Positions 18,926 to 49,662 of a stretch of DNA of 49,662 nucleotides are shown in pieces. The position numbers were made by a program, and so were the translations under genes. The notes beneath the pieces are model-generated. The model ran no database searches. It saw only the letters and a program-made list of their open reading frames with translations, and had not been told where the DNA came from. The first letter of the stretch is position 1. Each line of letters begins with the position of its first letter. This DNA comes from Escherichia phage 1W. The stretch lies in the sequence record OM475428; one strand, 5' to 3'.

Positions 18926-20854
18926 ATGGCAGTACAGATTTCAGGCGTGCTGAAAGACGGTGCAGGAAAACCGATACAGAACTGCACCATTCAGCTCAAA
19001 GCAAAACGTAACAGCACCACGGTTGTGGTGAACACGGTGGCCTCAGAAAATCCGGATGAAGCCGGACGTTACAGCATGGATGTCGAGTATGGCCAGTACA
19101 GCGTTATCCTGCTGGTTGAAGGTTTTCCGCCTTCACATGCCGGGACCATCACCGTGTATGAGGATTCTAAGCCGGGGACGCTGAATGATTTTCTGGGGGC
19201 CATGACGGAAGAGGATGTCATGCCGGAGGCATTGCGTCGTTTTGAGGTAATGGTGGAGGATGTGGCACGCAACGCTGAAGCCGCCTCTCAGAGCGCAGCG
19301 GCAGCAAAGAAATCAGAAACAGCAGCGGCATCGTCCAGGAACGCGGCGAAAACATCAGAGACGAATGCAGGTAACAGCGCGAAAGCGGCAGCTTCTTCAA
19401 AAACAGCCGCACAAAACGCAGCAACAGCGGCAGAACGTTCAGAGACAAATGCCCGTGCGTCAGAAGAAGCCTCCGCAGACAGTGAAGAGGCTTCCCGCCG
19501 TAATGCAGAGTCAGCCGCTGAAAATGCCGGAGTCGCCACCACAAAAGCGCGGGAGGCTGCAGCAGACGCAACAAAGGCCGGGCAGAAAAAGGATGAGGCT
19601 CTGTCGGCAGCGACACGAGCTGAAAAGGCGGCAGACCGCGCAGAAGCCGCAGCGGAAGTGACTGCAGAGCCCTATGCGAATATAGTGCCGCCGCTGCCTG
19701 ATGTGTGGATACCGTTTAACGATTCACTGGATATGATTGCGGGTTTTTCTCCGGGCTATAAAAAAATAGCTATTGGTGACGATGTGGTTCAGGTCGCCAG
19801 TGATAAACAGGTTAATTTCAGTCGCGCATCAACGGCAACATATATCAACAAATCTGGCGAACTGAAAACGGCGGAAATTAATGAGCCGCGATTTGAGTGT
19901 GATGGCCTGCTTATTGAGGGACAAAGAACGAACTACATGCTCAATTCGGAAAGTCCAGCCAGCTGGGGGAAGTCATCAAACATGGATGTGCCCGAAACTG
20001 GGACGGATAGTTTTGGTTTTACTTATGGAAAGTTTGTCTGCAACGATTCTCTGGTTGGGCAAACTTCGGCTATTAATATGGCATCAATTGCTGCAACAAA
20101 GTCAGTTGATGTCTCAGGCGATAACAAGTACGTGACAACCTCATGCCGTTTTAAAACAGAACGACAGGTAAGGTTACGTATACGGTTTGATAAGTATGAT
20201 GGTAGTGCAACAACTTTTCTTGGCGATGCGTACATTGATACGCAAACGCTTGAAATTAATATGACAGGTGGTGCTGCCGGCAGAATTACGGCACGAGTCA
20301 GGAAGGATAAGACCACGGGCTGGATTTTTGCAGAGGCAACGATTCAGGCAATTGATGGTGAGTTAAAAATAGGCTCTCAGATACAGTATTCTCCTGAGCA
20401 GGGTGGGGCAACAGTATCTGGTGACTATATTTATCTTGCCACCCCACAAGTAGAGAATGGGCCGTGTGTATCATCATTTATTATTTCAGGAGGCAGCGCA
20501 ACGACAAGAGCCAGTGATTTGGTTAGTATCCCCACCAGAAATAATCTTTATAAGTTACCATTTACTTTTTTACTTGAGATTCATAAAAACTGGGATATTG
20601 CACCAAACGCCGCACCCCGCGTGTGGGATATAGCAGCCAATACCGGGCAATCAGCAATTGCAGCAATCAACAGAGGTAGTGGTAAGTTATATATGAGTCT
20701 GTCAAACCCTTCAGGCTCGTATGTTAATAGCGCAGCGACAGATGTATTTGCAGAGAAAACCACATTTGGATGTATTGCAAAAGCTGATGGTCACTTTCAT
20801 GTGGTGACAAATGGTAAAGCGGTTAATGAAGTTTATTGTGAATATAATGGGTAA
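18926..20854 (+). pseudogene. stf: Side tail fibre gene interrupted near its 3' end by an IS66-family insertion; encodes a product lacking the last 43 residues
   Basis: N-terminus near-identical to lambda Stf (MAVxISGVLKDGxGKPxQNCTIQLKAxRNSTTVVVNTV) with Ala/Ser-rich repeats. The stop codon TAA is supplied by the first bases of the IS left end at 20851. Confidence 0.8.
20843..20850. repeat. 8-bp target site duplication TATAATGG (left copy)
   Basis: Identical 8-mer immediately flanks both IS ends (20843-20850 and 23383-23390). Confidence 0.8.
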
Positions 20855-20935
20855 GCGTAAACTGACCGCCGTATGTAGCCATCAGACGAGAATTGGTAAC
20901 TTAGACGCCCATCTGATATAGACGGACATCTAAGT

Positions 20936-21361
20936 ATGGAATTACAGGACTGGCGAAAAGAACCTCGTAAAAACTATTCGAATGAATTCAAACTTCGTAT
21001 GGTGGAACTGGCATCACAACCTGGAGCTTGTGTTGCACAGATTGCACGTGAAAATGGCGTCAATGATAATGTTATTTTCAAATGGCTCAGGCTCTGGCAG
21101 AACGAAGGGCGTGTTTCGCGGCGTCTTCCGGTAACGACCTCTTCTGACACTGGCGTTGAATTATTACCTGTAGAAATAACGCCGGATGAGCAGAAAGAAC
21201 CTGTGGCGGCCATTGCGCCGTCTTTATCCACTTCCACTCAGACCAGAGTCAGTGCCAGTTCCTGCAAGGTGGAATTCCGTCACGGTAACATGACGCTGGA
21301 AAATCCATCGCCAGAGCTGCTCACAGTGTTGATCCGTGAACTGACCGGGAGGGGAAGATGA
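20936..21361 (+). CDS. IS66 family accessory protein (orf1/TnpA-like, HTH)
   Basis: 141 aa; IS66 orf1-like N-terminus; overlaps orf2 by 4 nt. Confidence 0.8.
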   Translation: MELQDWRKEPRKNYSNEFKLRMVELASQPGACVAQIARENGVNDNVIFKWLRLWQNEGRVSRRLPVTTSSDTGVELLPVEITPDEQKEPVAAIAPSLSTSTQTRVSASSCKVEFRHGNMTLENPSPELLTVLIRELTGRGR

Positions 21362-21708
21362 TCTCACTCCCATCAGGTACCCGTATCTGGCTCGTTGCCG
21401 GCGTTACCGATATGCGTAAATCCTTCAACGGACTGGGAGAACAGGTACAACATGTGCTGAATGATAATCCCTTCTCCGGTCACCTGTTTATCTTCCGTGG
21501 CCGACGGGGTGACACCGTCAAAATTCTTTGGGCTGATGCTGATGGTCTGTGCCTGTTCACCAAACGCCTGGAGGAAGGCCAGTTTATCTGGCCTGCGGTA
21601 CGTGACGGCAAGGTATCCATTACCCGCTCGCAACTGGCAATGCTCCTCGATAAGCTGGACTGGCGTCAGCCAAAAACATCCAGCCGTAACTCACTGACAA
21701 TGTTGTAA
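21358..21708 (+). CDS. IS66 family TnpB-like protein (orf2)
   Basis: 116 aa with the typical IS66 orf2 motif (RIWLVAGVTDMRKSFNGL). Confidence 0.85.
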   Translation: MISLPSGTRIWLVAGVTDMRKSFNGLGEQVQHVLNDNPFSGHLFIFRGRRGDTVKILWADADGLCLFTKRLEEGQFIWPAVRDGKVSITRSQLAMLLDKLDWRQPKTSSRNSLTML

Positions 21709-21738
21709 AAAACTCCTGACCGCATTATAAAAACGGTC

Positions 21739-23352
21739 ATGAGTCAGAAATACCTCATTCGCATCGCAGAGCTGGAAAGGTTGCTCTCTGAGCAGGCTGA
21801 AGCCCTCCGTCAGAAAGACCAGCAACTGAGTCTGGTTGAAGAGACGGAAGCCTTCCTGCGCTCTGCACTGACACGTGCCGAAGAAAAGATCGAAGAAGAT
21901 GAACGGGAAATAGAACATCTGCGGGCTCAGATAGAAAAACTGCGCCGGATGCTGTTCGGTACCCGTTCTGAAAAACTGCGTCGTGAAGTTGAACTGGCTG
22001 AGGCTCTGCTGAAACAACGTGAACAGGACAGCGATCGTTACAGTGGGCGGGAAGACGATCCTCAGGTTCCCCGCCAGTTGCGACAGTCGCGCCATCGTCG
22101 TCCGTTACCGGCACACCTTCCCCGTGAAATACACCGCCTGGAGCCAGAAGAAAGCTGTTGCCCGGAGTGTGGCGGTGAGCTGGATTATCTGGGGGAAGTC
22201 AGCGCTGAACAGCTGGAACTGGTGAGCAGTGCCCTGAAAGTGATCCGCACAGAACGGGTAAAAAAAGCCTGTACAAAATGTGACTGTATTGTTGAAGCAC
22301 CGGCGCCGTCCCGCCCGATAGAGCGTGGTATCGCGGGCCCCGGATTACTTGCCCGCGTGTTAACGGGAAAATACTGCGAACATCTGCCACTGTATCGTCA
22401 GAGTGAAATCTTTGCCCGCCAGGGTGTCGAACTGAGCCGGGCCTTACTCTCCAACTGGGTTGACGCGTGCTGCCAGTTAATGACACCGGTGAATGATGCC
22501 CTGTACCGTTATGTAATGAATACCCGCAAGGTTCACACTGATGACACACCGGTAAAGGTACTGGCACCGGGTCAGAAAAAGGCGAAAACAGGGCGTATCT
22601 GGACGTATGTCCGGGATGATCGCAATGTGGGTTCGTCATCTCCTCCAGCGGTCTGGTTCGCGTACTCGCCGAACCGGCAGGGGAAACACCCGGAGCAACA
22701 CCTCCGCCCCTTCCGGGGTATCCTGCAGGCGGATGCGTTCACAGGTTACGACAGGTTGTTCAGTGCAGAACGTGAAGGTGGTGCACTGACAGAAGTTGCG
22801 TGCTGGGCCCATGCCCGGCGAAAAATCCACGATGTATACATCAGCAGCAAAAGTGCGACGGCAGAAGAAGCCCTGAAGCGAATCAGTGAACTGTACGCCA
22901 TCGAGGATGAAATACGGGGATTACCGGAGTCAGAGCGTCTTGCCGTCAGGCAGCAGCGAAGCAAAGTGTTACTGACGTCGCTGCATGAATGGATGGTGGA
23001 GAAGAATGGTACGCTGTCGAAAAAATCCAGACTGGGCGAAGCGTTCAGCTATGTACTGAATCAGTGGGATGCCCTCTGTTATTACAGTGATGACGGTCTG
23101 GCGGAGGCGGATAATAATGCTGCGGAAAGAGCGCTTCGTGCAGTCTGTCTCGGAAAGAAAAACTTTATGTTCTTTGGCAGCGATCACGGCGGCGAGCGTG
23201 GAGCACTGTTGTACGGGCTGATCGGCACCTGCCGTCTGAACGGTATCGATCCGGAAGCGTATCTGCGCCATATCCTGAGCGTACTGCCGGAATGGCCTTC
23301 CAACCGAGTTGACGAACTCCTGCCATGGAACGTAGTACTCACCAATAAATAA
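21739..23352 (+). CDS. IS66 family transposase (orf3, DDE with zinc ribbon)
   Basis: 537 aa; N-terminal coiled coil, CPECGGEL zinc-ribbon motif, conserved IS66 transposase core. Confidence 0.85.
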   Translation: MSQKYLIRIAELERLLSEQAEALRQKDQQLSLVEETEAFLRSALTRAEEKIEEDEREIEHLRAQIEKLRRMLFGTRSEKLRREVELAEALLKQREQDSDRYSGREDDPQVPRQLRQSRHRRPLPAHLPREIHRLEPEESCCPECGGELDYLGEVSAEQLELVSSALKVIRTERVKKACTKCDCIVEAPAPSRPIERGIAGPGLLARVLTGKYCEHLPLYRQSEIFARQGVELSRALLSNWVDACCQLMTPVNDALYRYVMNTRKVHTDDTPVKVLAPGQKKAKTGRIWTYVRDDRNVGSSSPPAVWFAYSPNRQGKHPEQHLRPFRGILQADAFTGYDRLFSAEREGGALTEVACWAHARRKIHDVYISSKSATAEEALKRISELYAIEDEIRGLPESERLAVRQQRSKVLLTSLHEWMVEKNGTLSKKSRLGEAFSYVLNQWDALCYYSDDGLAEADNNAAERALRAVCLGKKNFMFFGSDHGGERGALLYGLIGTCRLNGIDPEAYLRHILSVLPEWPSNRVDELLPWNVVLTNK

Positions 23353-23382
23353 GCGTCAATACGGTGCTCCGTTGACGCTTAC

Positions 23383-23390
23383 TATAATGG
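23383..23390. repeat. 8-bp target site duplication TATAATGG (right copy)
   Basis: Direct repeat of 20843-20850 abutting the IS right end. Confidence 0.8.
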
Positions 23391-23523
23391 CGTGACCGCT
23401 GATAAAAATATCCGATTTGGAGGGCAGACGAATACTGGAGAACGACATCTGTTTGGCCATATTCGCAATTTCCGCATATGGCATAAAGAATTAAATGACA
23501 GGCAATTAAAAGAGGTCGTATGA
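23391..23523 (+). pseudogene. stf: Displaced 3' end of stf (last 43 codons plus stop), in frame with the upstream part once the IS and one TSD copy are removed
   Basis: Conceptual excision restores ...EYNG-VTADKNIRFGGQTNTGERHLFGHIRNFRIWHKELNDRQLKEVV*; the tail resembles the last strand of a LamG/ConA-like lectin domain. Confidence 0.7.
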
Positions 23524-23798
23524 AAGATTTAACTTTGAAGTTTCATGACAAACTGCAGTTTAAGGCCTTCCTGTCATCTCTTGGCTGGGCGGAAGATGAA
23601 GACCTCCAGAATAAACTGTTAGTTGATGAAATTGGTTTCACCTACACAGAAACAGGGGTAACAGAAGAGGGAGAACCTGTCTGTATCCGGAATGATGGTT
23701 ATTTTGTCAACATTCGCATTCTTGATGACTTGTTTGATGTTTCTGTATTCTCTGATTATGTCGTGGAGCTGGAAACACCGCTTCGGGAATGGAGCTGA
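23520..23798 (+). CDS. Hypothetical acidic protein, start overlapping the reconstructed stf stop (GTATGA)
   Basis: 92-aa ORF with ATG; the stop/start overlap suggests original translational coupling to stf; no recognisable family. Confidence 0.5.
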   Translation: MKDLTLKFHDKLQFKAFLSSLGWAEDEDLQNKLLVDEIGFTYTETGVTEEGEPVCIRNDGYFVNIRILDDLFDVSVFSDYVVELETPLREWS

Positions 23799-23810: not shown

Positions 23811-24104
23811 ATGGATATAAGCCCCTTACTTCATGCACTTTGTGCTGTGGCTGCGCAGATACTGGTTGGTCTTTTTACCGGAAACTGGGCTTACGGAGCG
23901 ATAGCCGGTTGTACGTTCTTCATTGCGCGTGAACATACCCAGGCAGAATATCGCTGGATTGAAATGTTCGGGCATGGCAAGCGAATGAATATGCCGTGGT
24001 GGGGCGGTTTTGATCCGCGTGCTTGGGATGTGGCAAGCCTGATGGATTTTGCTGTGCCGGTGGTGGCGTGTCTGCTGGTCTGGCTGTTGGTTAATCGTGG
24101 GTGA
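23811..24104 (+). CDS. Hypothetical small membrane protein (two predicted TM segments)
   Basis: 97 aa with hydrophobic N- and C-terminal stretches, Trp-rich middle; RBS-like GGAGG upstream. Confidence 0.5.
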   Translation: MDISPLLHALCAVAAQILVGLFTGNWAYGAIAGCTFFIAREHTQAEYRWIEMFGHGKRMNMPWWGGFDPRAWDVASLMDFAVPVVACLLVWLLVNRG

Positions 24105-24195
24105 AAAAAGGTGAGCTGTATATGCAACGGAGGAAGAAACCCCGTTGCTGGAAGCCAGGAAAAAGTATCGGGTGTTGCTGTCCTCGGATGTTGTG

Positions 24196-25053
24196 CTAAT
24201 TGGGTGATAACAGATCCTGTGTATGGGAGTTTCCCTTTTTGCGTGCGTTGATGCTGGTAACGGCAAACGTCATGATGAACAAAACCGCGAATAAGACGAC
24301 AATCGTCGGAGCTGGTGCGCTGTCGATAAAAAAGGACAACCAGACACCAGTCATTGACACTATTACCGATATGCCAGTCGCCAGTAGGAGCGCAATATGA
24401 AAGCGTTGTGTCAGGAGTACCGCAATGGCGCCAGGCGCAATGAGCAGAGAAATGGAGAGAATGATACCTACCGCTTTCAGCGTCGCCACAATGGTCAGAG
24501 AGACCATGCACAGCAGCCCATAATGCAGCCATCTCGTATGCAAACCGCTTACCTGCGCCTGTTGATAATCAAAGCTGAACAGCAAAAAATCCCGCCATTT
24601 TACGCTAATAACAAGTGTAACCAGCCCGGCAATAATCATCGTCTGGATTATATCGCCGATGGTTATCCCGAGCATGTCGCCGAAAAGAATATGGTCAAGA
24701 TGTACGTCTGGTTTGACTGCAATATACAAGATCAGACCTGCGGCAAACATGCCAGAAAAAACAATCCCCATCACTGTATCTTGCTTGATTCGGCTGTTGT
24801 CTTTCAGGTATCCCGTCGCCACCGCGCAGAATACTCCGGCGACGAATGCCCCTGTAGCCAAAGGTAACCCCAGAATCCAGGCAAGCACGATGCCAGGAAA
24901 AACCGCATGACTCATCGCGTCACCCATCAGTGCCCAACCTTTCAGGACCAGAAAGACCGACAGCAGCGCACAGGGTATGGAAACTACCAGTGAAATCAGC
25001 AGTGCGTGACTCATAAAGGTGAACTGCAGTGGCTCCAGTAATAATGCCATCAT
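24196..25053 (-). CDS. sitD: Mn/Fe ABC transporter permease SitD
   Basis: 285 aa polytopic membrane protein, ABC-3 permease family; last gene of a four-gene operon with overlapping stop/start junctions. Confidence 0.85.
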   Translation of the reverse strand: MMALLLEPLQFTFMSHALLISLVVSIPCALLSVFLVLKGWALMGDAMSHAVFPGIVLAWILGLPLATGAFVAGVFCAVATGYLKDNSRIKQDTVMGIVFSGMFAAGLILYIAVKPDVHLDHILFGDMLGITIGDIIQTMIIAGLVTLVISVKWRDFLLFSFDYQQAQVSGLHTRWLHYGLLCMVSLTIVATLKAVGIILSISLLIAPGAIAVLLTQRFHIALLLATGISVIVSMTGVWLSFFIDSAPAPTIVVLFAVLFIMTFAVTSINARKKGNSHTQDLLSPN

Positions 25054-25907
25054 GAGCGATCCTCCAGCGCCTTATGCGCACGCCGACGATTTGCCAAAAG
25101 CCCATGGGTGGGCGCAAAGACAAATGCTAAAAGAAACAGCAGTGTCTGCGCCACCACGATGATTCCACCTGTCGCGCCGTCCAGAAAGTAACTGACCCAC
25201 GCGCCGAGGAAACTGGTTACACTGCCAATAGTTACAGCAATCATGAGCAGGCGGGGAAAACGATCGGTTAACAACCATGCTGTTGCACCGGGAGTCACCA
25301 CCAGACAGATCACCAGAAAGGCACCAACCGTTTGCAGCGCCGCAACGGTCGAAACCGACAGCAGGGTGAAGAAGAGGAGTTTTAATCTGCCCGGATGCAA
25401 TCCAATAGCACGGGCGTGATTCTCGTCGAAAAAGGTCACCATAAGATCTTTCCATTTGAAAAAAAGCACGATGATCGAGAGAATGCCAATGATAGTGAGT
25501 TGCAGGATATCCGCCGGATCGATTGCCAGAATATTGCCCAGGACGATGGTCTGAATGTTCACAGATGTCGGGTTCAATGACACCATAAACAGCCCCAGGC
25601 CAAAAAAGGACGAGAAGATCAGACCGATGATGGCATCTTCTTTTAAGCGGGTGCGTTGGTTAAGAAACAGCATGCTGCCCGCAGCCAGTCCGCCGGAAAA
25701 GAAGGCTCCCAGAGAAAACGGAAGCCCCAGCATATATGCCCCCGCAACACCCGGGACAATAGAGTGCGACAACGCATCGCCAATCAGCGACCAGCCTTTT
25801 AGCATCAGATAGCATGACAGGAAAGCGCAGAGACCGCCGACCATCGCCGAGACCCACATCGCATTGAGCATATATTCATAGCTGAAGGGTTCCAGTAGCA
25901 CGTTCAT
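25050..25907 (-). CDS. sitC: Mn/Fe ABC transporter permease SitC
   Basis: 285 aa paralogous permease; overlaps neighbours by 4 nt. Confidence 0.85.
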
Positions 25908-26731
25908 CTTTCTTCCCTCTGCACCGCTGACGGTCGATGAGCCACAAAAGGGCGTTCATCGTCAGTAATAATGCTTTCTTCCGAGCCGTTAAGTGTGACA
26001 TGGCGCAGTACGCCGCTAAAAGCCAGCTCTAGGTTCTCGGCTGTAAAAGTGGTGTCTGTCGGCCCGCTTGCCAGGACGGTGCCTTTGACCATGACCGTAT
26101 AATCGCAAAATGTCGTGACGGATCCGAGATTGTGTGTTGAGACAAGCATCGTTTTGCCTTCCGCGCGTAACTCCCTCAACAGGCTGATGATTTTGGCTTC
26201 GGTTTTCACATCAACGCCAGTAAAAGGTTCATCCAGCAGGATCACATCACCCTGCTGTGCAATCGCTCTCGCCAGAAAGACGCGTTTCTTTTGTCCACCG
26301 GAAAGCTCGCCGATTTGTCGATGGCGAAAATTCACCATATCGACACGTTCCAGCGCATCGGTGACAATTTGACGATCCCTCTTTTTGGCGATACGCAACA
26401 TACCCATATGCCCATAGCGGCCCATCATCACCACATCTTCCACCAGTACAGGAAATGACCAGTCAACCTCTTCTGACTGAGGGACGTAGGCAACCAGGTT
26501 TTTCTGTAACGCCTGTCGCGTGGGAATACCCAGAACAGATATCTTTCCGCTGGTCAGACGCACAAATCCCATAATCGCTTTAAACAACGTCGATTTTCCG
26601 GAACCGTTTACCCCAACCAGAGCGGCAATAGATCCACTTGGTACTGTGAAGGATGCATCGCGCAGTGCTGTGTGCCCGTTATGCCAGGTGACAGCAACAT
26701 CATTAACGACAATGCCTGCAGATTGCATCAT
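25904..26731 (-). CDS. sitB: Mn/Fe ABC transporter ATP-binding protein SitB
   Basis: Walker [13 protein letters not shown] signature LSGGQKKR, Walker B ILLDEP. Confidence 0.9.
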
Positions 26732-27645
26732 TATTTCTCCCTTTTCCCGGCTTTAATTCCCTGTACCAGCGTACTGGTAGTAACCTTAAGAAGGTCGATA
26801 TACGTCGGTACCGGGCCGTTTTCTGTGCTCAGGGAATCGACATAGAGCACACCGCCGTAGTGTGCGCCGGTTTCACGCGCAACCTGACGCGCTGGTTTAT
26901 CGGAAATCGTACTCTCGCTAAAGACTGCCGGGATATGATTTTTCTTAACTATATCAACAACCTTACGTACCTGCTGCGGTGTTCCTTGTTGATCGGCATT
27001 AATCGGCCACAGATAAAGCTCTTTTAGCCCCAAATCGCGTGCGAGATAAGAAAAAGCCCCTTCACTGGTGACCATCCATCGCTGATTCTCAGGGAGTTCC
27101 GTAATCTGCTTACGCAGGGGGGCAAGGGTTTGGGTAATCTTGGCTTTATAAGTATCGGCATTGCGTTGGTAGGTTTGTGCATTTGCCGGATCGTATTTTA
27201 TCAACGCATCACGAATATTATCGACGTAAATCAGAGCATTATCTGGCGACATCCATGCATGGGGGTTAGGTTTGCCCTCATAGGGTCCTTCGGTGATCCC
27301 TACAGGCGTCACACCCGAAGAGACAATTACTTCTGGAACCCCATTGAGATGCTGGTAAAAGCGTTGGAACCACAATTCCAGATTCATACCATTGGCGAGA
27401 ATCAGTTGTGCCCCCTGCGCACGTTTAATATCGCCAGGGGTAGGCTGATACTCATGAATTTCTGCACCAGGCTTGGTTATGGATGAGACTTCTGCAGCAT
27501 CTCCCGCCACGTTTTTGGCCATATCCGCGATGATGGTAAATGTTGTAATGACCTTAAATTTTTCAGTTGCACTTGCCTGAAATGCGATCGAGCAGGTGAG
27601 TGCGAGGCCCCCCAAGAGCATGGTTACTTTTTTTATTGAGCGCAT
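26731..27645 (-). CDS. sitA: Periplasmic Mn/Fe-binding protein SitA (cluster A-I substrate-binding protein) with signal peptide
   Basis: 304 aa; N-terminal signal peptide; TroA/ZnuA-like fold features; first gene of the operon. Confidence 0.9.
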
Positions 27646-27677
27646 AATTTAGTACCTATAGTGAGCAAAATTAGAAC

Positions 27678-27699
27678 AAACATAGCAACGGCTATGTTT
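27678..27699 (-). promoter_or_regulatory. MntR-box-like palindrome upstream of sitA
   Basis: AAACATAGCAACGGCTATGTTT, a near-perfect inverted repeat about 35 bp upstream of the sitA start, matching the remembered MntR operator consensus. Confidence 0.6.
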
Positions 27700-27723
27700 T
27701 ATAGCATAACCTATACAGAATGA

Positions 27724-27740
27724 AAATGATTATCATTAAC
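27724..27740 (-). promoter_or_regulatory. Fur-box-like sequence upstream of sitA
   Basis: AAATGATTATCATTAAC contains the GATAAT/ATTATC-type palindrome characteristic of Fur boxes. Confidence 0.55.
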
Positions 27741-27748
27741 ATCTTTGA

Positions 27749-28078
27749 GGCCCAAAACAGGGATTAGTTTGTTTCCTGCTGGATGAAAGGACTCTTGGGA
27801 TAGCACATGCCGCACGAAGAGCAGCATTACATGATGTTTTGTCGAATGAGCTACGAATCCTGATAGAAATACGAAACAAGCTAGCACATGGACAATGGAT
27901 CTATCCCTTCAATAATGAAGGAAATACTGTGGACCCTGATAAATATAAATTAATCAATAAAGAAAACTTGCAGTCACTCCAATTCAAATATTCATTAGCA
28001 CAGCATTTAGTTGACGCTGTACATGATTTGGTTGTAAGTCCTACGACATTCGAACGAGATTTCGAAAGCCATTTTTAA
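27749..28078 (+). pseudogene. 5'-truncated remnant of a HEPN-like (R-x4-H motif) gene
   Basis: Open frame without any in-frame ATG (the track start is TTG); contains EIRNKLAHG (Rx4H); begins right at the sit promoter region, suggesting truncation by the sit insertion. Confidence 0.4.
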
Positions 28079-28431
28079 AAATTATATCAAGTACGAACAA
28101 ACTTAGTGACAAAAGACTACGAAAAATATAAAACAATTTTAGTATTAAGTAGAGAGAAATTTCGTTCTGCTAGGACGCAGCAATAGGTTCATGAGATTCT
28201 CTGATACTTGTTACCTTAGTAAGCCTTAAATTTTTAAAAATTCTTTTACGTCCACTCCTCGCTCATAACAGGCATTAACTACATTTATCTTCATTGGCTA
28301 TGCAAGTCGTAATAAAAGGTGGGACAAAACTGAGACACATAAGCTCTCACAAAGGTCTGCAAGGCCTCACATGTATTGAGATGTTAATAAAATGTAGACT
28401 TGTAATTTTGATATAAATGGTAGATAAAACC

Positions 28432-28443
28432 TTTCCCCAAAAT
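28432..28443 (+). repeat. Arm-type-like repeat TTTCCCCAAAAT on the left side of attP
   Basis: Fourth copy of the TTCCCCAAAA(C/T) motif that is triplicated at 28791-28828. Confidence 0.45.
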
Positions 28444-28560: not shown

Positions 28561-28725
28561 CTGCTGCGCCATATGGGTTGGACTGAAGCGGCTGACCTGA
28601 TTGTTAAAGGTATGGAAGGCGCAATCAACGCCAAGACCGTAACCTATGACTTCGAACGTCTGATGGAAGGCGCTAAACTGCTGAAATGTTCAGAGTTTGG
28701 TGATGCGATCATCAAGAATATGTAA
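28561..28725 (+). other. icd: Phage-borne 3' fragment of icd (isocitrate dehydrogenase C-terminus); the attP crossover region lies at its 5' edge
   Basis: In-frame translation [54 protein letters not shown] matches the E. coli Icd C-terminus from recall, with upstream sequence unrelated to icd. Phage 21 and e14 are known to integrate into icd and carry such a replacement fragment. Confidence 0.8.
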
Positions 28726-28790: not shown

Positions 28791-28828
28791 TCTTCCCCAA
28801 AACTTTCCCCAAAACCCTTCCCCAAAAC
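28791..28828 (+). repeat. Three tandem direct repeats (tc/t/cc)TTCCCCAAAAC; candidate integrase arm-type binding sites
   Basis: Three consecutive 12-13-bp units between the icd fragment and the int 3' end; one more copy at 28432-28443. Confidence 0.55.
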
Positions 28829-28838
28829 TGGCTGTTTT

Positions 28839-29981
28839 CTATGCTGTTTTGATATCTACGATAATCCAGTCTTTACCACGATCATCATTGTATCGGTCGG
28901 TCATTTTTCTGGATTTATGGCCTAACAACTTTTGCGTATCCAGACCCTGTTCCCGATATAACCGTTCTGACAGAGATCGCTGCTCATGAAATGTGGGCGC
29001 AGTTCCTTGCTCCCATTTTATGCCACATTTTTCCCTGGCCTTTTTAAAAGCCGTTGTCAGAGTATTCGCAGAAACCTGGTCTCCTCTGTTTGCTTGAGAG
29101 GTTGTGTGACGGTAATGGACCAGATATTTACTAACAACAGCATCCCTGCACTGAGATATAACTTCACGAAGGGTAATATTCAGAGCATCGCATTTCAGGT
29201 TAAGCGGAATAGCAAGTTTTGAACCGGTTTTTTCCTGAGTAATGTGCAACATGTCGTCCCAGATATCAGAGAATTTCAAATTGCAGATATCGCCTAAACG
29301 TTGTCCAGTGACAAGAGCAAGTAGCATCCCGCATTTTAAATAGGGCTGCCGTCTGCTTACGCTGTCAAATATTGCCTGCCATTCGGGCAGTGATAATCTT
29401 TGGCGGTTTACTCGATTTCGCGGTTGTTTTGTTGCCTGCGCTGGGTTAAATCCTGGCGGAACATGTCCTGCGTGTTGTGCTTCTTTGAAGACGTCGATTA
29501 ACACCATTCTCACGACTTGCGCCATCCTGTTATGACCTTCAGCCTTTACAGCATCAATTATTTCGGCAATATCAAGTGCGGTAATATCCTTGAGGTGTTG
29601 CATTCCACAATGCTCACGGAAAAGACGAATGGGTTTGCCTTTTTGCCGATAGGAGTTGGGTCTTAGTTCATTATGTTGCAGCCTGTCCTCCTGGATAGAA
29701 ATATATTTATCAAGCCATTCTGTCACCGTAATGTCTGAGCGCCTGCCTTTCATTCTTTCCAGACGCTCATTGACGCTTAATATTTGTCGGGTACGTTGTT
29801 CAGCAATAATGGTATTTGCTTCAGTAGCAACTTGTTTTGCTTCATTCTCATCAGTTCCTAAGCTATGAAAACGACCGGATAGTGGATGTTTGTATTGCCA
29901 ATATACCTTTCCGGTTCGCTTATCTAATTTGCAATATAAATTGGGTATAGAGATTTTGTGAGATCGGGGTCTAGCAGCCAT
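28839..29981 (-). CDS. int: Tyrosine integrase (lambda Int family)
   Basis: 380 aa; C-terminal catalytic region LLGHKSRKMTDRYNDDRGKDW resembles lambda Int (LLGHKSDTMASQYRDDRG); adjacent to xis and att. Confidence 0.9.
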   Translation of the reverse strand: MAARPRSHKISIPNLYCKLDKRTGKVYWQYKHPLSGRFHSLGTDENEAKQVATEANTIIAEQRTRQILSVNERLERMKGRRSDITVTEWLDKYISIQEDRLQHNELRPNSYRQKGKPIRLFREHCGMQHLKDITALDIAEIIDAVKAEGHNRMAQVVRMVLIDVFKEAQHAGHVPPGFNPAQATKQPRNRVNRQRLSLPEWQAIFDSVSRRQPYLKCGMLLALVTGQRLGDICNLKFSDIWDDMLHITQEKTGSKLAIPLNLKCDALNITLREVISQCRDAVVSKYLVHYRHTTSQANRGDQVSANTLTTAFKKAREKCGIKWEQGTAPTFHEQRSLSERLYREQGLDTQKLLGHKSRKMTDRYNDDRGKDWIIVDIKTA

Positions 29982-39873: not shown

Positions 39874-41400
39874 ATGAAAAAAGCCATAGCATATATGCGA
39901 TTTTCATCACCAGGTCAGATGTCTGGTGATTCATTAAACCGCCAGAGAAGGCTTATTACTGAATGGCTAAAGGTAAATAGTGATTATTACCTTGATACCG
40001 TAACGTATGAAGATTTGGGGTTAAGCGCATTCAATGGAAAGCATGCACAATCAGGAGCTTTTTCGGAATTTTTAGATGCTATAGAACATGGTTACATATT
40101 GCCAGGGACTACATTGTTAGTTGAAAGTCTGGACAGACTTTCAAGAGAAAAAGTCGGTGAAGCGATTGAGCGTCTGAAATTGATTTTGAATCACGGTATT
40201 GATGTTATAACTCTTTGCGATAATACAGTCTATAATATAGACTCATTGAATGAGCCATATTCATTAATAAAAGCCATACTTATAGCACAAAGGGCAAATG
40301 AAGAAAGCGAGATAAAGTCAAGTCGGGTTAAATTATCATGGAAGAAAAAACGGCAGGATGCACTGGAATCAGGCACGATTATGACGGCGTCTTGTCCGAG
40401 ATGGCTCTCATTGGATGACAAAAGAACAGCTTTTATTCCAGACCCCGACAGGGTGAAAACGATTGAGCTAATTTTTAAACTCAGGATGGAAAGGCGATCA
40501 TTGAATGCAATAGCTAAGTATTTAAATGATCATGCTGTAAAAAATTTTTCAGGAAAAGAAAGTGCATGGGGGCCTTCTGTAATTGAAAAATTATTAGCGA
40601 ATAAAGCTCTGATAGGTATATGCGTACCTTCATATCGTGCAAGAGGGAAAGGGATAAGTGAAATCGCTGGCTATTATCCCAGAGTCATATCAGATGATTT
40701 GTTTTACGCTGTACAGGAAATTCGGTTGGCACCTTTTGGTATTAGCAATAGTAGCAAGAATCCTATGCTAATAAATCTACTTCGAACAGTTATGAAGTGT
40801 GAGGCTTGTGGTAATACCATGATTGTTCATGCGGTATCTGGACGTTTGCATGGCTATTATGTTTGTCCGATGAGAAGATTACATCGATGTGACAGGCCAT
40901 CAATAAAAAGAGATTTGGTTGATTATAATATCATTAATGAATTGCTTTTTAATTGTAGCAAAATTCAACCAGTTGAAAACAAGAAAGATGCTAATGAAAC
41001 TTTAGAGTTAAAAATTATTGAGCTTCAGATGAAAATTAATAATTTAATCGTTGCATTGTCTGTCGCGCCTGAAGTTACCGCTATAGCAGAGAAAATAAGA
41101 CTATTAGATAAGGAATTACGAAGGGCTTCGGTATCATTAAAAACTTTGAAGAGTAAAGGGGTGAGTTCACTTGGTGATTTTCATGCTATTGATTTAACCA
41201 GTAAAAATGGGCGAGAGCTATGTCGTACACTTGCCTATAAAATATTCGAAAAAATTATAATTAATACAGATAATAAAACCTGTGATATCTATTTTATGAA
41301 TGGCATTGTTTTTAAACACTATCCTTTAATGAAAGTAATATCCGCCCAGCAGGCGATAAGTACTCTTAAATATATGGTTGATGGTGAGGTTTATTTTTGA
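39874..41400 (+). CDS. ybcK: Large serine recombinase (resolvase/invertase catalytic domain, recombinase domain, zinc ribbon); DLP12 YbcK-like
   Basis: 508 aa; N-terminal catalytic region with a Ser in MRFSSPGQ; Cys cluster CEACGN...CPMRRLHRC; AT-rich gene. Confidence 0.8.
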   Translation: MKKAIAYMRFSSPGQMSGDSLNRQRRLITEWLKVNSDYYLDTVTYEDLGLSAFNGKHAQSGAFSEFLDAIEHGYILPGTTLLVESLDRLSREKVGEAIERLKLILNHGIDVITLCDNTVYNIDSLNEPYSLIKAILIAQRANEESEIKSSRVKLSWKKKRQDALESGTIMTASCPRWLSLDDKRTAFIPDPDRVKTIELIFKLRMERRSLNAIAKYLNDHAVKNFSGKESAWGPSVIEKLLANKALIGICVPSYRARGKGISEIAGYYPRVISDDLFYAVQEIRLAPFGISNSSKNPMLINLLRTVMKCEACGNTMIVHAVSGRLHGYYVCPMRRLHRCDRPSIKRDLVDYNIINELLFNCSKIQPVENKKDANETLELKIIELQMKINNLIVALSVAPEVTAIAEKIRLLDKELRRASVSLKTLKSKGVSSLGDFHAIDLTSKNGRELCRTLAYKIFEKIIINTDNKTCDIYFMNGIVFKHYPLMKVISAQQAISTLKYMVDGEVYF

Positions 41401-41724: not shown

Positions 41725-41751
41725 AGCCCGCATAAGTGCGGGCTGCTTTTT
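41725..41751. terminator. Bidirectional hairpin terminator between ybcK and the convergent hydrolase gene
   Basis: Stem agcccgca / tgcgggct followed by gcttttt on the plus strand; abuts the hydrolase stop on the minus strand. Confidence 0.6.
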
Positions 41752-42793
41752 ACAGGTCAGCGTTTGTTTTTTGTTGTTGGGTAGCGGTTTTTATGGGGGT
41801 TCCCAGGTTTTTAGTAAACCACTCAACAACTCTGTTTATAATAATTGGCTGATACCATGTATTATCGCCATGCTCGGCCCCTTCTACCAGCACGTACTCA
41901 GCGTTATCACCGTTCTTCTTCAACATCCTGAATAGTTTGGCGCTTTGCTCAGGTGAAACCAGAGTGTCTTTGCTACCATGCATAATAAGAAATGGGGGTT
42001 TTACTCCTTTCATATGTCCGATTGGACTGGCGTTTAGCGCTTTTTCTTTTGACGCTGTGATGGGGGCTCCCGCAAAATTTCTGAATGCAGGGCCATTGAT
42101 CATTAAGGCTTCGGTTACGGCAGGAGAGCGATGAACCTCCTGCACTGATTCAGGGAACCCCTCGCCAATATTCAACAAGTCAGAAATCCCATAAAGTGTG
42201 GCAACTGCCTGAACATCTGAGGATTGCTGAAGAAAGTCACCTTTATCAAAGGTTTTGTCACCATTTGTAGTTCCCATCATCTGGGCAAGCCATCCACCGG
42301 CAGAGTCACCCAGAACTCCGATTCTTTGAGGATCAATCCCATAATTGCTGGCATGCTCTCTCAGGTAACGTATTGCAGCTTTTCCATCCTCAACTGGTGC
42401 TGGAAATGTATCAGGAATTGTTCTGTATTCTACAGCGGCCACAACAAAACCAGCTTCTGCCAGAGCCATTCTCATTTCAATAAATTTGTCATGTTCAGAA
42501 GACATGAATCCGCCGCCGGGATAATAAATAATGGCTGGTTTTAAATCATTTGTTCGCGGGACAAGAACTGACATGTGAAGCTGTCTGACAGAACGAGTTC
42601 CTTTTATCTGGGAATAAACAACATCACCAATGAGATCGACCTGGTTTCTGGTCGGTGAAACACTAATGATATCTGCACCCGGGGTGTAACCAGGAAGATT
42701 AGTCTGGACAGGTGTTGCACAACTCCCGACCGACATGGCCATTGACATACCATACAATAGTGTTGCAGATGATAATATCTTGTTAATTTTCAT
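41750..42793 (-). CDS. Secreted/lipoprotein alpha/beta-hydrolase (esterase/lipase family)
   Basis: 347 aa; signal peptide with a Cys (MSVGSC); oxyanion-hole motif YYPGGGF; nucleophile elbow GDSAGG. Confidence 0.75.
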   Translation of the reverse strand: MKINKILSSATLLYGMSMAMSVGSCATPVQTNLPGYTPGADIISVSPTRNQVDLIGDVVYSQIKGTRSVRQLHMSVLVPRTNDLKPAIIYYPGGGFMSSEHDKFIEMRMALAEAGFVVAAVEYRTIPDTFPAPVEDGKAAIRYLREHASNYGIDPQRIGVLGDSAGGWLAQMMGTTNGDKTFDKGDFLQQSSDVQAVATLYGISDLLNIGEGFPESVQEVHRSPAVTEALMINGPAFRNFAGAPITASKEKALNASPIGHMKGVKPPFLIMHGSKDTLVSPEQSAKLFRMLKKNGDNAEYVLVEGAEHGDNTWYQPIIINRVVEWFTKNLGTPIKTATQQQKTNADL

Positions 42794-45302: not shown

Positions 45303-46385
45303 TTAGAACTGATAAACCAGACCTACAGCGACGATGTCGTCGGTATCAATACCAGCTGTTTTGGTAAACTTACTATCGTCAATTAAGTTGATTTTGTAAT
45401 CAACAAAAGTGGACATGTTTTTATTAAAGTAGTAAGTAGCACCGACATCGACATACTTGACTAAGTCTCGGTCACCATGAACACCAAGGTCTTTACCTTT
45501 TGACTGAAGGTAAGCAACAGATGGTCGCAGACCGAAGTCAAACTGATATTGTGCTACTGCTTCAAAGTTTTGTGCTTTGTTTGCAATATGGTTATTACCA
45601 AAAACGGTCATATTCTGAGTTTCAGAATATGTGGTAGCCAGATAGATATTGTTCGCATCATATTTCAGGCCTGCAGCCCATACTTCCGCATTTTTGCCGG
45701 AGGCATTGAATTTGCTCTTACCATAGGCGACCTGACCGTCAGTGCGATCTGATTTAGCATAGGTTGCACCCACGCCGAATCCTTCATACTCATAAGTAGT
45801 GGAGAAACCGAAACCATCACCATTGACTTCAGTTACGTCAGTGCGGTCATTTTTACCCTGATACTGAGCAGCAAAGTTCAGGCCATCGACCAGACCAAAG
45901 AAGTCGTTGTTACGATAAGTTGCAACACCAGTAGTGCGACCAGTCATGAACACATCTGTTTGGGTCCAGGTATCACCACCGAATTCTGGCAGGACGTCAG
46001 TCCACGCACCGATGTCGTATGCTACACCGTAGTTACGGCCGTAATCGATTGAGCCGTAATCACCAAATTTCAGGCCTGCAAATGCAAGACGGGTTTTGTC
46101 TTTGGAAGAACCTTGAGATTCAGCACGGTTGCCTTTGAATTCATATTCCCACTGACCGAAACCAGTCAGTTGATCGTTGATTTGGGTTTCACCTTTGAAG
46201 CCAAGACGGGCATAAGTAGTATCACCATCATCTGCATCATTAGAGGAGAAGTAGTGCTTGGCATTAACTTTCCCGTATAGATCCAGCTTGTTACTGTCTT
46301 TATTATAAATTTCAGCTGCCTGAGCAGACATCGCCATCAGTACTGATGCAGCTACAGCAGAAATTGCCACTGTTAATTTTTTCAT
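45303..46385 (-). CDS. nmpC: Outer membrane porin (OmpC/OmpF/NmpC-Lc family) with signal peptide
   Basis: 360 aa; signal peptide ending AQA-AEIYNK; C-terminal aromatic residue (VYQF); the position between Q and lysis genes matches DLP12 nmpC and PA-2 lc. Confidence 0.85.
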
Positions 46386-49131: not shown

Positions 49132-49297
49132 ATGAAGGTTAATAAAAAGAGGCTTGCCGAAATTTTCAACGTGGACCCGCGGACGATTGAACGCTGGCAG
49201 TCTCAGGGACTCCCTTGCGCCTCCAAAGGTAGTAAGGGCATTGAATCTGTATTTGATACTGCCATGGCAATTCAGTGGTATGCGCAGAGGGAAACTG
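49132..49297 (+). CDS. nu1: Terminase small subunit, 5' portion (continues at window position 1; the gene wraps around the circular contig)
   Basis: [28 protein letters not shown]...; 49169-49297 is identical to window 1-129. Confidence 0.85.

Positions 49298-49662
<365 letters not shown>

Follow-up and report, generated by a model that had tools for sequence, protein, structure and literature searches.

Operons of the sitABCD type have been described on lambda-like phages of E. coli. Mathieu et al. (2020, PMC6969025) found that 70% of lambda phages from the infant gut carry sitABCD, in every case with a Fur box; the operon was missing from 30% of the lambda-type phages. In an LF82 lysogen, the sitA-D transcripts of the prophage Perceval stood 4- to 13-fold over the prophage background (Misson et al. 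2023, PMC9928086); these data are from LB, not metal limitation, and the transcribed operon is a 99.6%-identical relative of the one examined here. Concerning function, a review (PMC7545054) gives published Mn2+ and Fe2+ transport for the Sit orthologues of Salmonella, Shigella and ExPEC, and a further article (PMC8970401) describes repression of a Salmonella sitA-lacZ fusion by both Fur and MntR.

The window examined here, the whole stretch of 49,662 nucleotides from Escherichia phage 1W (OM475428), is 99.996% identical to Escherichia phage 4A7. A preliminary description made from the sequence had read its sit operon as phage cargo with host-type operators, implying lysogenic conversion, and this fits the published work on the phage family (PMC6969025, PMC9928086). 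We regard it as very likely that the operon is a metal-regulated moron of the icd-integrating phage 21/4A7/Perceval group of lambda-like coliphages. Phage-carried sitABCD has already been published for the 4A7 phage and many relatives and is not a discovery; the value of the present analysis is therefore limited to confirmation and two small corrections, one on the origin of the flanking junction and one on the identity of the neighbouring gene fragment.

Genes and products of the sit operon

The ORF listing gives the following genes.

26731-27645, minus strand: sitA, periplasmic Mn/Fe-binding protein, 304 aa
25904-26731, minus strand: sitB, ABC ATPase, 275 aa
25050-25907, minus strand: sitC, ABC-3 permease, 285 aa
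24196-25053, minus strand: sitD, ABC-3 permease, 285 aa

All four ORFs are intact and full length, in the gene order A-B-C-D. According to the ORF coordinates, sitA and sitB overlap by 1 nt, the start of sitB lying over the stop of sitA, and the overlaps of sitB/sitC and sitC/sitD are 4 nt each. The junctions are of the translationally coupled kind, and two ABC-3 permease genes are present.

In Pfam, SitA corresponds to ZnuA (PF01297, E 8.9e-86), and it matches YfeA from Y. pestis (5uxs) at E 3.8e-125. Residues H64, H129, E195 and D270 of SitA align with identical residues in this YfeA structure; judging by the YfeA and PsaA structures, they are presumably the metal ligands. SitA thus presents the His-His-Glu-Asp site of a binding protein with the ZnuA/PsaA fold. 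SitB is a member of the NCBIfam equivalog NF011630, manganese/iron ABC transporter ATP-binding protein, with 589 bits against a cutoff of 393, and the Walker A, signature and Walker B motifs, ILLDEP among them, are legible in its translation. SitC and SitD are both ABC-3 proteins (PF00950, E 5.6e-83 and 1.5e-76, respectively, in Pfam). A complete four-gene ABC-3 metal uptake operon with overlapping junctions, as first described, is borne out by the four minus-strand ORFs and these family matches. By sequence, sitABCD is a Mn/Fe ABC importer of the SitABCD/YfeABCD type (cluster A-I), with predicted transport of Mn2+ and Fe2+.

The neighbours of the operon have decayed, as seen in a gene fragment at 27783-28078 and a tail-fibre gene disrupted by IS66, and sit itself might be taken for a decaying, non-functional passenger. 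However, its four ORFs retain their full length, motifs and ligands, pairwise identity among the sit copies in 26 phage records is 99.5% or more, and the operon is transcribed in a lysogen. We consider loss of function extremely improbable.

Predicted operators and putative promoter upstream of sitA

Three features were located in front of sitA.

27678-27699, no strand assigned: predicted MntR-type operator, a perfect 9-4-9 palindrome AAACATAGC-CGTT-GCTATGTTT, from a pattern scan
27722-27740, minus strand: predicted Fur box GTTAATGATAATCATTTTC, 17/19 to the consensus GATAATGATAATCATTATC
27698-27726, minus strand: putative sigma-70 promoter, read by eye

The palindrome is situated 33 nt 5' of the sitA ATG. 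It had been called near-perfect, and in fact shows 0 mismatches to AAACATAGC-N4-GCTATGTTT; it is the sole match in the window when up to 3 mismatches are allowed, against a chance expectation of 0.01. The mntH promoter of K-12 contains a palindrome with exactly these half-sites, and the literature identifies that palindrome as the MntR operator. The palindrome is conserved in phage 21, and the plasmid copy has one base changed in one half-site. The Fur-box-like sequence of the preliminary description was also recovered, as the sole such site in the window (0.01 expected by chance). In Supplementary Fig. 7 of Mathieu et al. (2020, PMC6969025), a Fur box is marked in the aligned upstream region of sitABCD_4A7, and this region contains GTTAATGATAATCATTTTC; MntR has 0 occurrences in the supplements of that paper. 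Among other Enterobacterales, a core of ATAGC-N4-GCTAT is kept 43-85 nt before sitA, and a Fur-like box is found 92-108 nt before sitA in most loci. The two sites thus lie at similar distances from sitA across Enterobacterales, and both are also found in the 97%-identical plasmid allele.

The palindrome was also listed in a scan as terminator-like, with a T-rich tail, and it folds at -9.8 kcal/mol (z = -2.35). These properties would suit an RNA hairpin, either a terminator or an attenuator, in the sitA leader rather than an MntR operator. On the other hand, the stem of this 22-nt element includes only 3 G-C pairs, its half-sites are those of the mntH promoter, and in other genera the ATAGC-N4-GCTAT core is conserved but the bases on either side, which could extend the stem, drift. 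Retention of the core with drift of the flanks is the pattern expected of a protein-binding site, and the hairpin reading appears very improbable to us. No riboswitch or sRNA was found between 20 and 31 kb with Rfam.

A consensus promoter scan reported no minus-strand promoter upstream of sitA. By eye, a putative -35 hexamer TTTTCA (27726-27721) and a putative -10 hexamer TATAAA (27703-27698), separated by a 17-nt spacer, can be read, and we infer that they form a sigma-70 promoter. The Fur box overlaps the putative -35, and the MntR-type palindrome overlaps the putative -10 and the start region, a layout like that of mntH. Both kinds of site that characterize the dually repressed mntH/sitA promoter type, a Fur box and an MntR inverted repeat, are present. 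The arrangement supports predicted Fur/MntR-type control of sit on its own, through operators of the host type.

Location in the phage genome and the flanking junction

The features surrounding the operon are as follows.

20851-23382, plus strand: IS66-family element with three ORFs, within the 3' end of the side-tail-fibre gene
24169-27781, no strand assigned: 3.6-kb sit module shared with ColV-type and other plasmids, ~97% identity
27783-28078, plus strand: decayed fragment of an uncharacterised ~160-aa gene, from homologue alignment
27783-28280, no strand assigned: variable slot between the sit promoter and the attP arm, from comparison with phage 21 and JJ1886
28573-28725, plus strand: phage-borne 3' icd fragment, from translation
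28791-28827, plus strand: three arm-type integrase repeats YYTTCCCCAAAA of attP, consensus from the phage 21 annotation
28839-29981, minus strand: tyrosine integrase gene int, from ORFs and the annotations of 4A7 and phage 21
29971-30207: xis, following int

The plus strand carries the late genes, up to ~20.8 kb; sit lies on the minus strand, flanked by the side-tail-fibre region and attP/int. The location and strand first reported for the operon are confirmed, and its position between these regions identifies it as true phage cargo. An active phage packages it as part of its genome, and the adjacent attP is intact. In addition to the three clustered arm-type repeats, a fourth YYTTCCCCAAAA copy is present at 28431-28442. 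The icd fragment is labelled isocitrate dehydrogenase in the annotation of 4A7, and an ICDH-like pseudogene is annotated beside attP in phage 21. Upon integration, the phage-borne icd 3' end takes the place of the host icd end. The IS66 element is bounded by an 8-bp target duplication, TATAATGG, and provides the left-hand neighbourhood of sit in the 4A7 lineage alone.

We examined whether the operon could be host DNA, joined to the phage by chimeric assembly or by a one-off aberrant excision, rather than a stable part of the phage. Assembly artefacts do exist at the end of the window (a circular overlap, an Illumina adapter and ~320 nt of poly-G/N), but these are confined to 49298-49662, ~21 kb away from sit. 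Altogether 26 phage records, those of classical phage 21 and the LF82 prophage Perceval included, have sit in the same slot; both its left and right junctions recur in these separately deposited records, virion-derived isolates among them. Phage 21 comes from Paris sewage of the 1950s. Of the complete E. coli genomes searched, 1191, or about one-fifth, contain the exact junction between phage DNA and sitD, and an intact attP follows sit on the right. The sit module as such is found in about half of the complete E. coli genomes searched; in JJ1886 the operon is within a lambdoid prophage and adjoins the displaced icd fragment. A chimeric assembly, which the preliminary description had named as grounds for abandoning its reading, is contradicted by the recurrence of the arrangement in 26 independent records, and we regard the probability of a foreign join as negligible.

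The operon has the same orientation as int/xis and the early-left operon, and the int-sitA interval yielded no convincing intrinsic terminator on the minus strand other than the weak hairpin of the palindrome. This raises the possibility that sit is an auxiliary metabolic gene set of lytic growth, expressed by N-antiterminated read-through from pL/pI via int/attP and not from its own metal-regulated promoter. Against this, sit retains a Fur/MntR promoter of the host type, also conserved where sit is not phage-borne, it is transcribed in a repressed lysogen (Perceval, PMC9928086), and it is missing from 30% of related lambda phages (PMC6969025). We consider such a dependence on phage promoters quite improbable. 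A related idea, that phage transcription switches sit during infection or induction and so makes it a lifecycle-coupled auxiliary metabolic gene, seems unlikely. In the infecting or excised phage, sit is downstream of int and co-oriented with it, with no strong terminator between them, and it faces the Q-antiterminated late operon head-on. If the idea holds, phage transcription would either raise the Mn/Fe supply by sense read-through or silence sit by antisense transcription.

Concerning the right-hand side of the operon, the preliminary description had proposed that insertion of sit truncated a HEPN-like neighbour. The fragment at 27783-28078 is real and truncated: it is without ~30 N-terminal residues and carries TAA where its homologues have Lys. 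The junction, however, does not mark where sit was inserted. Phage 21 and JJ1886 have ~1.5 kb of different DNA in the variable slot, and upstream of sit the plasmid copies match phage 21 over 49 bp more than they match the window. The longer homology between the plasmids and phage 21 indicates that the 4A7 lineage most likely replaced the original flank later, so that the 27782/27783 junction would reflect this replacement. The 252-aa ORF in the variable slot of phage 21 and JJ1886 was considered and found to be unrelated to the fragment. The ends of the sit module were compared for repeats such as a cassette mechanism might leave, and only 7-nt matches at chance level were obtained.

The HEPN label needs correction. 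An R-x4-H motif, RNKLAH, is invariant in 12/12 aligned members of the fragment family, and a HEPN identity is unsupported beyond this motif; no HEPN match for the fragment was obtained in Pfam, PADLOC, PDB sequence or fold searches, which covered profiles, defence systems and folds.

Proposed function and comparison with known systems

As a metal-regulated moron, the operon may work as follows. Judging from homology, SitA would bind periplasmic Mn2+ or Fe2+ through its His-His-Glu-Asp site and pass the ion to the SitC/SitD pair of ABC-3 permeases, with import powered by the SitB ATPase. In a lysogen with plentiful metal, host Fe-Fur and Mn-MntR would hold sit off, and Fe or Mn limitation would release it independently of the phage CI repressor. 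Since the operon is packaged with the rest of the phage genome, in which it lies between the tail-fibre genes and attP, each lysogenisation delivers it, and in the prophage it adjoins attR and the icd 3' end that was displaced. The lysogen would be expected to gain improved Mn/Fe acquisition and resistance to oxidative stress, going by what has been published on sit in Salmonella, Shigella and ExPEC. Phage carriage explains the spread of a recognised metal-acquisition fitness and virulence factor among commensal and pathogenic E. coli.

The closest counterparts are the sitABCD operons of 4A7/4C10, Perceval and phage 21, which are between 99.5% and fully identical to that of the window, occupy the same slot beside attP(icd)/int and carry the same Fur box and palindrome. 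The operon itself shows no difference; the IS66 element in stf and a 0.5-kb flank replacement upstream of sitA are found only in the 4A7 lineage, to which the window belongs. Comparison with ColV-type plasmids, proposed in the preliminary description, revealed that these and other conjugative plasmids share the 3.6-kb module at ~97% identity, with both the Fur box and the MntR-type repeat. The plasmid operon differs in being flanked by IS1 and Tn3 remnants, not phage genes, and the left half-site of its palindrome has one change, AAACATAGT. The sitABCD of Salmonella SPI-1 and the yfeABCD of Y. pestis have the same four-gene architecture and protein families, and SitA is ~75% identical to the protein from S. 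enterica subsp. arizonae. In contrast to the phage operon, these Salmonella and Yersinia genes are chromosomal island genes, and the details of their operator sequences differ. In the K-12 mntH promoter, a Fur box is followed ~20 nt on by AAACATAGC-N4-GCTATGTTT, directly 5' of the gene, as in the phage, with the spacer AAAG in place of CGTT; the gene driven there encodes a proton symporter of the NRAMP type instead of an ABC importer.

Location of sitABCD in the phage genome

The sitABCD operon of Escherichia phage 1W is phage cargo. As stated in the preliminary description, it lies between the tail-fibre genes and attP on the minus strand, opposite to the late genes, which occupy the plus strand from terminase to tail fibre, to ~20.8 kb. 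The following features are found to its right.

28573-28725, phage-borne 3' end of icd
28791-28827, three arm-type repeats YYTTCCCCAAAA, followed by int and xis

This is a vegetative attP arrangement, and sit is therefore situated within the packaged genome. Positions 1000-49229 are 99.996% identical (2 mismatches) to Escherichia phage 4A7 (NC_049946), and the 10 kb around sit are 100% identical to Lambda_4C10, 4A7 and 3W. When the 3.6-kb module was searched alone, 26 phage records were retrieved, 25 of them at ≥99.5% identity. The module occupies the same slot across phage records, including those of Perceval and phage 21, a classical late-1950s isolate from Paris sewage. In E. coli JJ1886, a lambdoid prophage has sit at its right end, where it adjoins a displaced icd fragment and ycgX-bluR-bluF. 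Of 5426 complete E. coli genomes, 2636 contained the module, which was also found in 1066 plasmid records; the exact junction between a phage 97-aa ORF and sitD was present in 1191 genomes. A chimeric assembly is ruled out by these occurrences.

Concerning the origin of the module, the closest SitA among the matches listed, with one genome per species (L006-L025), was that of Phytobacter (86%), and SitA from Salmonella arizonae in the same set was 75% identical. We could not identify a near-identical chromosomal donor of the phage and plasmid module among these matches.

Several other features were noted in the window. The side-tail-fibre gene is separated from sitD by two small plus-strand ORFs, at 23520-23798 (92 aa) and 23811-24104 (97 aa, annotated in phage 21 as a two-TM membrane protein); both are kept in phage 21 and JJ1886 and are without family assignment. 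An IS66-family element (20851-23382; 2532 bp, three ORFs, terminal inverted repeats GTAAGCGT...), found only in the 4C10/4A7/3W/D2 lineage, is flanked by an 8-bp target duplication, TATAATGG (20843-20850 and 23383-23390), and is inserted ~135 nt before the side-tail-fibre stop as judged against phage 21. The end of the window (49168-49662) is an assembly artefact, in which bases 1 to ~130 recur at 49168-49297 as a circular overlap; this overlap precedes the Illumina P5 adapter in reverse complement (GTGTAGATCTCGGTGGTCGCCGTATCATT), a short run of poly-A and ~320 nt of N-containing poly-G. The RefSeq annotation of 4A7 lists further cargo-like genes at ~39.3-46.4 kb.

Within ~39.3-46.4 kb, QacE/EmrE-type small multidrug transporter
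39874-41400, 508-aa recombinase-family protein, besides the tyrosine integrase
41750-42793, minus strand, esterase
45303-46385, minus strand, OmpC/NmpC-type porin

The transporter genes

The operon consists of four intact ORFs with overlapping junctions (1, 4 and 4 nt), as had been described.

26731-27645, minus strand, sitA, 304 aa
25904-26731, minus strand, sitB, 275 aa
25050-25907, minus strand, sitC, 285 aa
24196-25053, minus strand, sitD, 285 aa

SitA belongs to Pfam ZnuA (PF01297, E 8.9e-86), and SitC and SitD to ABC-3 (PF00950, E 5.6e-83 and 1.5e-76, respectively). SitB scored 589 bits (cutoff 393) against the NCBIfam equivalog for the manganese/iron ABC transporter ATP-binding protein. 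YfeA from Yersinia pestis (PDB 5uxs) aligned with SitA residues 24-297 (E 3.8e-125), and His64, His129, Glu195 and Asp270 of SitA, which we take to be the metal ligands of the family, were identical. Because of the four intact ORFs, the family matches and the residues identical to YfeA, the operon encodes a complete, apparently functional importer of the SitABCD/YfeABCD type. Mn/Fe transport by sit orthologues is known from the literature, and a review covers the sit island in Shigella and E. coli (PMC7545054).

The gene fragment next to the sit promoter

Homology to phage 21 and JJ1886 stops at 27782 and restarts at 28281. The intervening 0.5 kb (27783-28280) contains a plus-strand gene fragment starting at 27783, which is homologous to uncharacterised proteins of ~150-165 aa in which IEIRNKLAHGQW and HDLVVS..FERDF blocks are invariant; the family (P0003, P0005, P0007 and P0009) is unannotated and all-helical. 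Compared with these, the fragment lacks ~30 N-terminal residues and carries TAA at the position of their Lys, with the frame still recognisable past that stop. The fragment is therefore a decayed pseudogene. The truncation previously attributed to the sit insertion is thus real, but its cause appears to be different. Upstream homology of the plasmid copies extends 49 bp further with phage 21 than with the window (in L005, to 5213 versus 5164). The simplest reading of these sequences is that the original flank, ~1.5 kb in phage 21, was replaced later in the 4A7 lineage, to which 1W belongs; on that reading, the neighbouring gene would not have been cut by the sit insertion. The proposed HEPN-like identity was not borne out, as the family had no match in Pfam, NCBIfam or PADLOC and none below E 0.18 among PDB profiles, leaving only an R-x4-H motif; its members may be small nucleases or toxins.

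The slot between the sit promoter and the attP arm varies among sit-carrying phages (27783-28280 versus 8401-9899 in L002, and L004), measuring 0.5 kb in the lineage of the window versus ~1.5 kb in phage 21 and JJ1886, where it holds an IS3-like scrap and a 252-aa ORF unrelated to the fragment.

Operators upstream of sitA and their likely function

Phage-carried sitABCD is already known, since it has been published for phages of this family and the MntR palindrome is known from sit and mntH promoters. Phages of the 4A7 group were isolated by Mathieu et al. (2020; PMC6969025), who found sitABCD, in each case with a Fur box, on 70% of infant-gut lambda phages and whose Supplementary Fig. 7 aligns the region upstream of sitABCD_4A7. 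Misson et al. (2023; PMC9928086) counted sitA-D of Perceval among its morons, transcribed 4- to 13-fold above the prophage background in an LF82 lysogen. Salmonella sitA is repressed by Fur and MntR (PMC8970401). Among the elements of the main observation, only the MntR palindrome on the phage copy is not spelled out in these three papers or in PMC7545054, and MntR has 0 occurrences in the supplements of Mathieu et al.

Both operator-like sequences noted in the preliminary description are present, each only once in the window.

27678-27699, perfect palindrome AAACATAGC-CGTT-GCTATGTTT; sole match even at 3 mismatches (expected 0.01)
27722-27740, Fur-box-like site GTTAATGATAATCATTTTC; 17/19 versus consensus (expected 0.01)

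We compared the region upstream of sitA in 25 loci, most of which came from other Enterobacterales. Those belonging to Enterobacterales have an ATAGC-N4-GCTAT core 43-85 nt upstream of the start codon, and most of them also have a Fur-like box 92-108 nt upstream; the corresponding distances in the window are 54 and 95 nt. The plasmid allele (97% identical) retains both sites, with one base altered in one half-site. TTTTCA (27726-27721) and TATAAA (27703-27698), separated by 17 nt, form a plausible sigma-70 promoter, which a consensus promoter scan did not list. Judging from the hexamer positions, Fur would sit on the -35 element and MntR on the -10 element and the start. The possibility that the palindrome is instead a terminator is unlikely; as RNA it folds weakly (-9.8 kcal/mol, z -2.35).

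The sequence itself shows that the transporter is intact, that the operators are of host type and that the operon is located in the phage genome. The preliminary description is confirmed as an observation, its main interpretation has support, and two of its side claims were corrected. We presume that in a 4A7 lysogen the operon would be repressed by Fe-Fur and Mn-MntR, and that metal limitation or oxidative stress would lead to its derepression, which may improve host fitness independently of CI. During lytic growth, transcripts reading through from pL/pI into sit, or antisense ones coming from the late operon, are a less likely addition; gene orientation would permit either, and a terminator scan and RNA folding revealed no strong terminator. 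The proposed regulation by Fur and MntR has a counterpart in the mntH promoter of E. coli K-12, in which a Fur-like box is followed by AAACATAGC-AAAG-GCTATGTTT immediately before the gene. Patzer and Hantke reportedly identified this palindrome as the MntR operator in 2001. The mntH and phage sitA promoters thus have the same half-sites, and the two sites are arranged in the same order.
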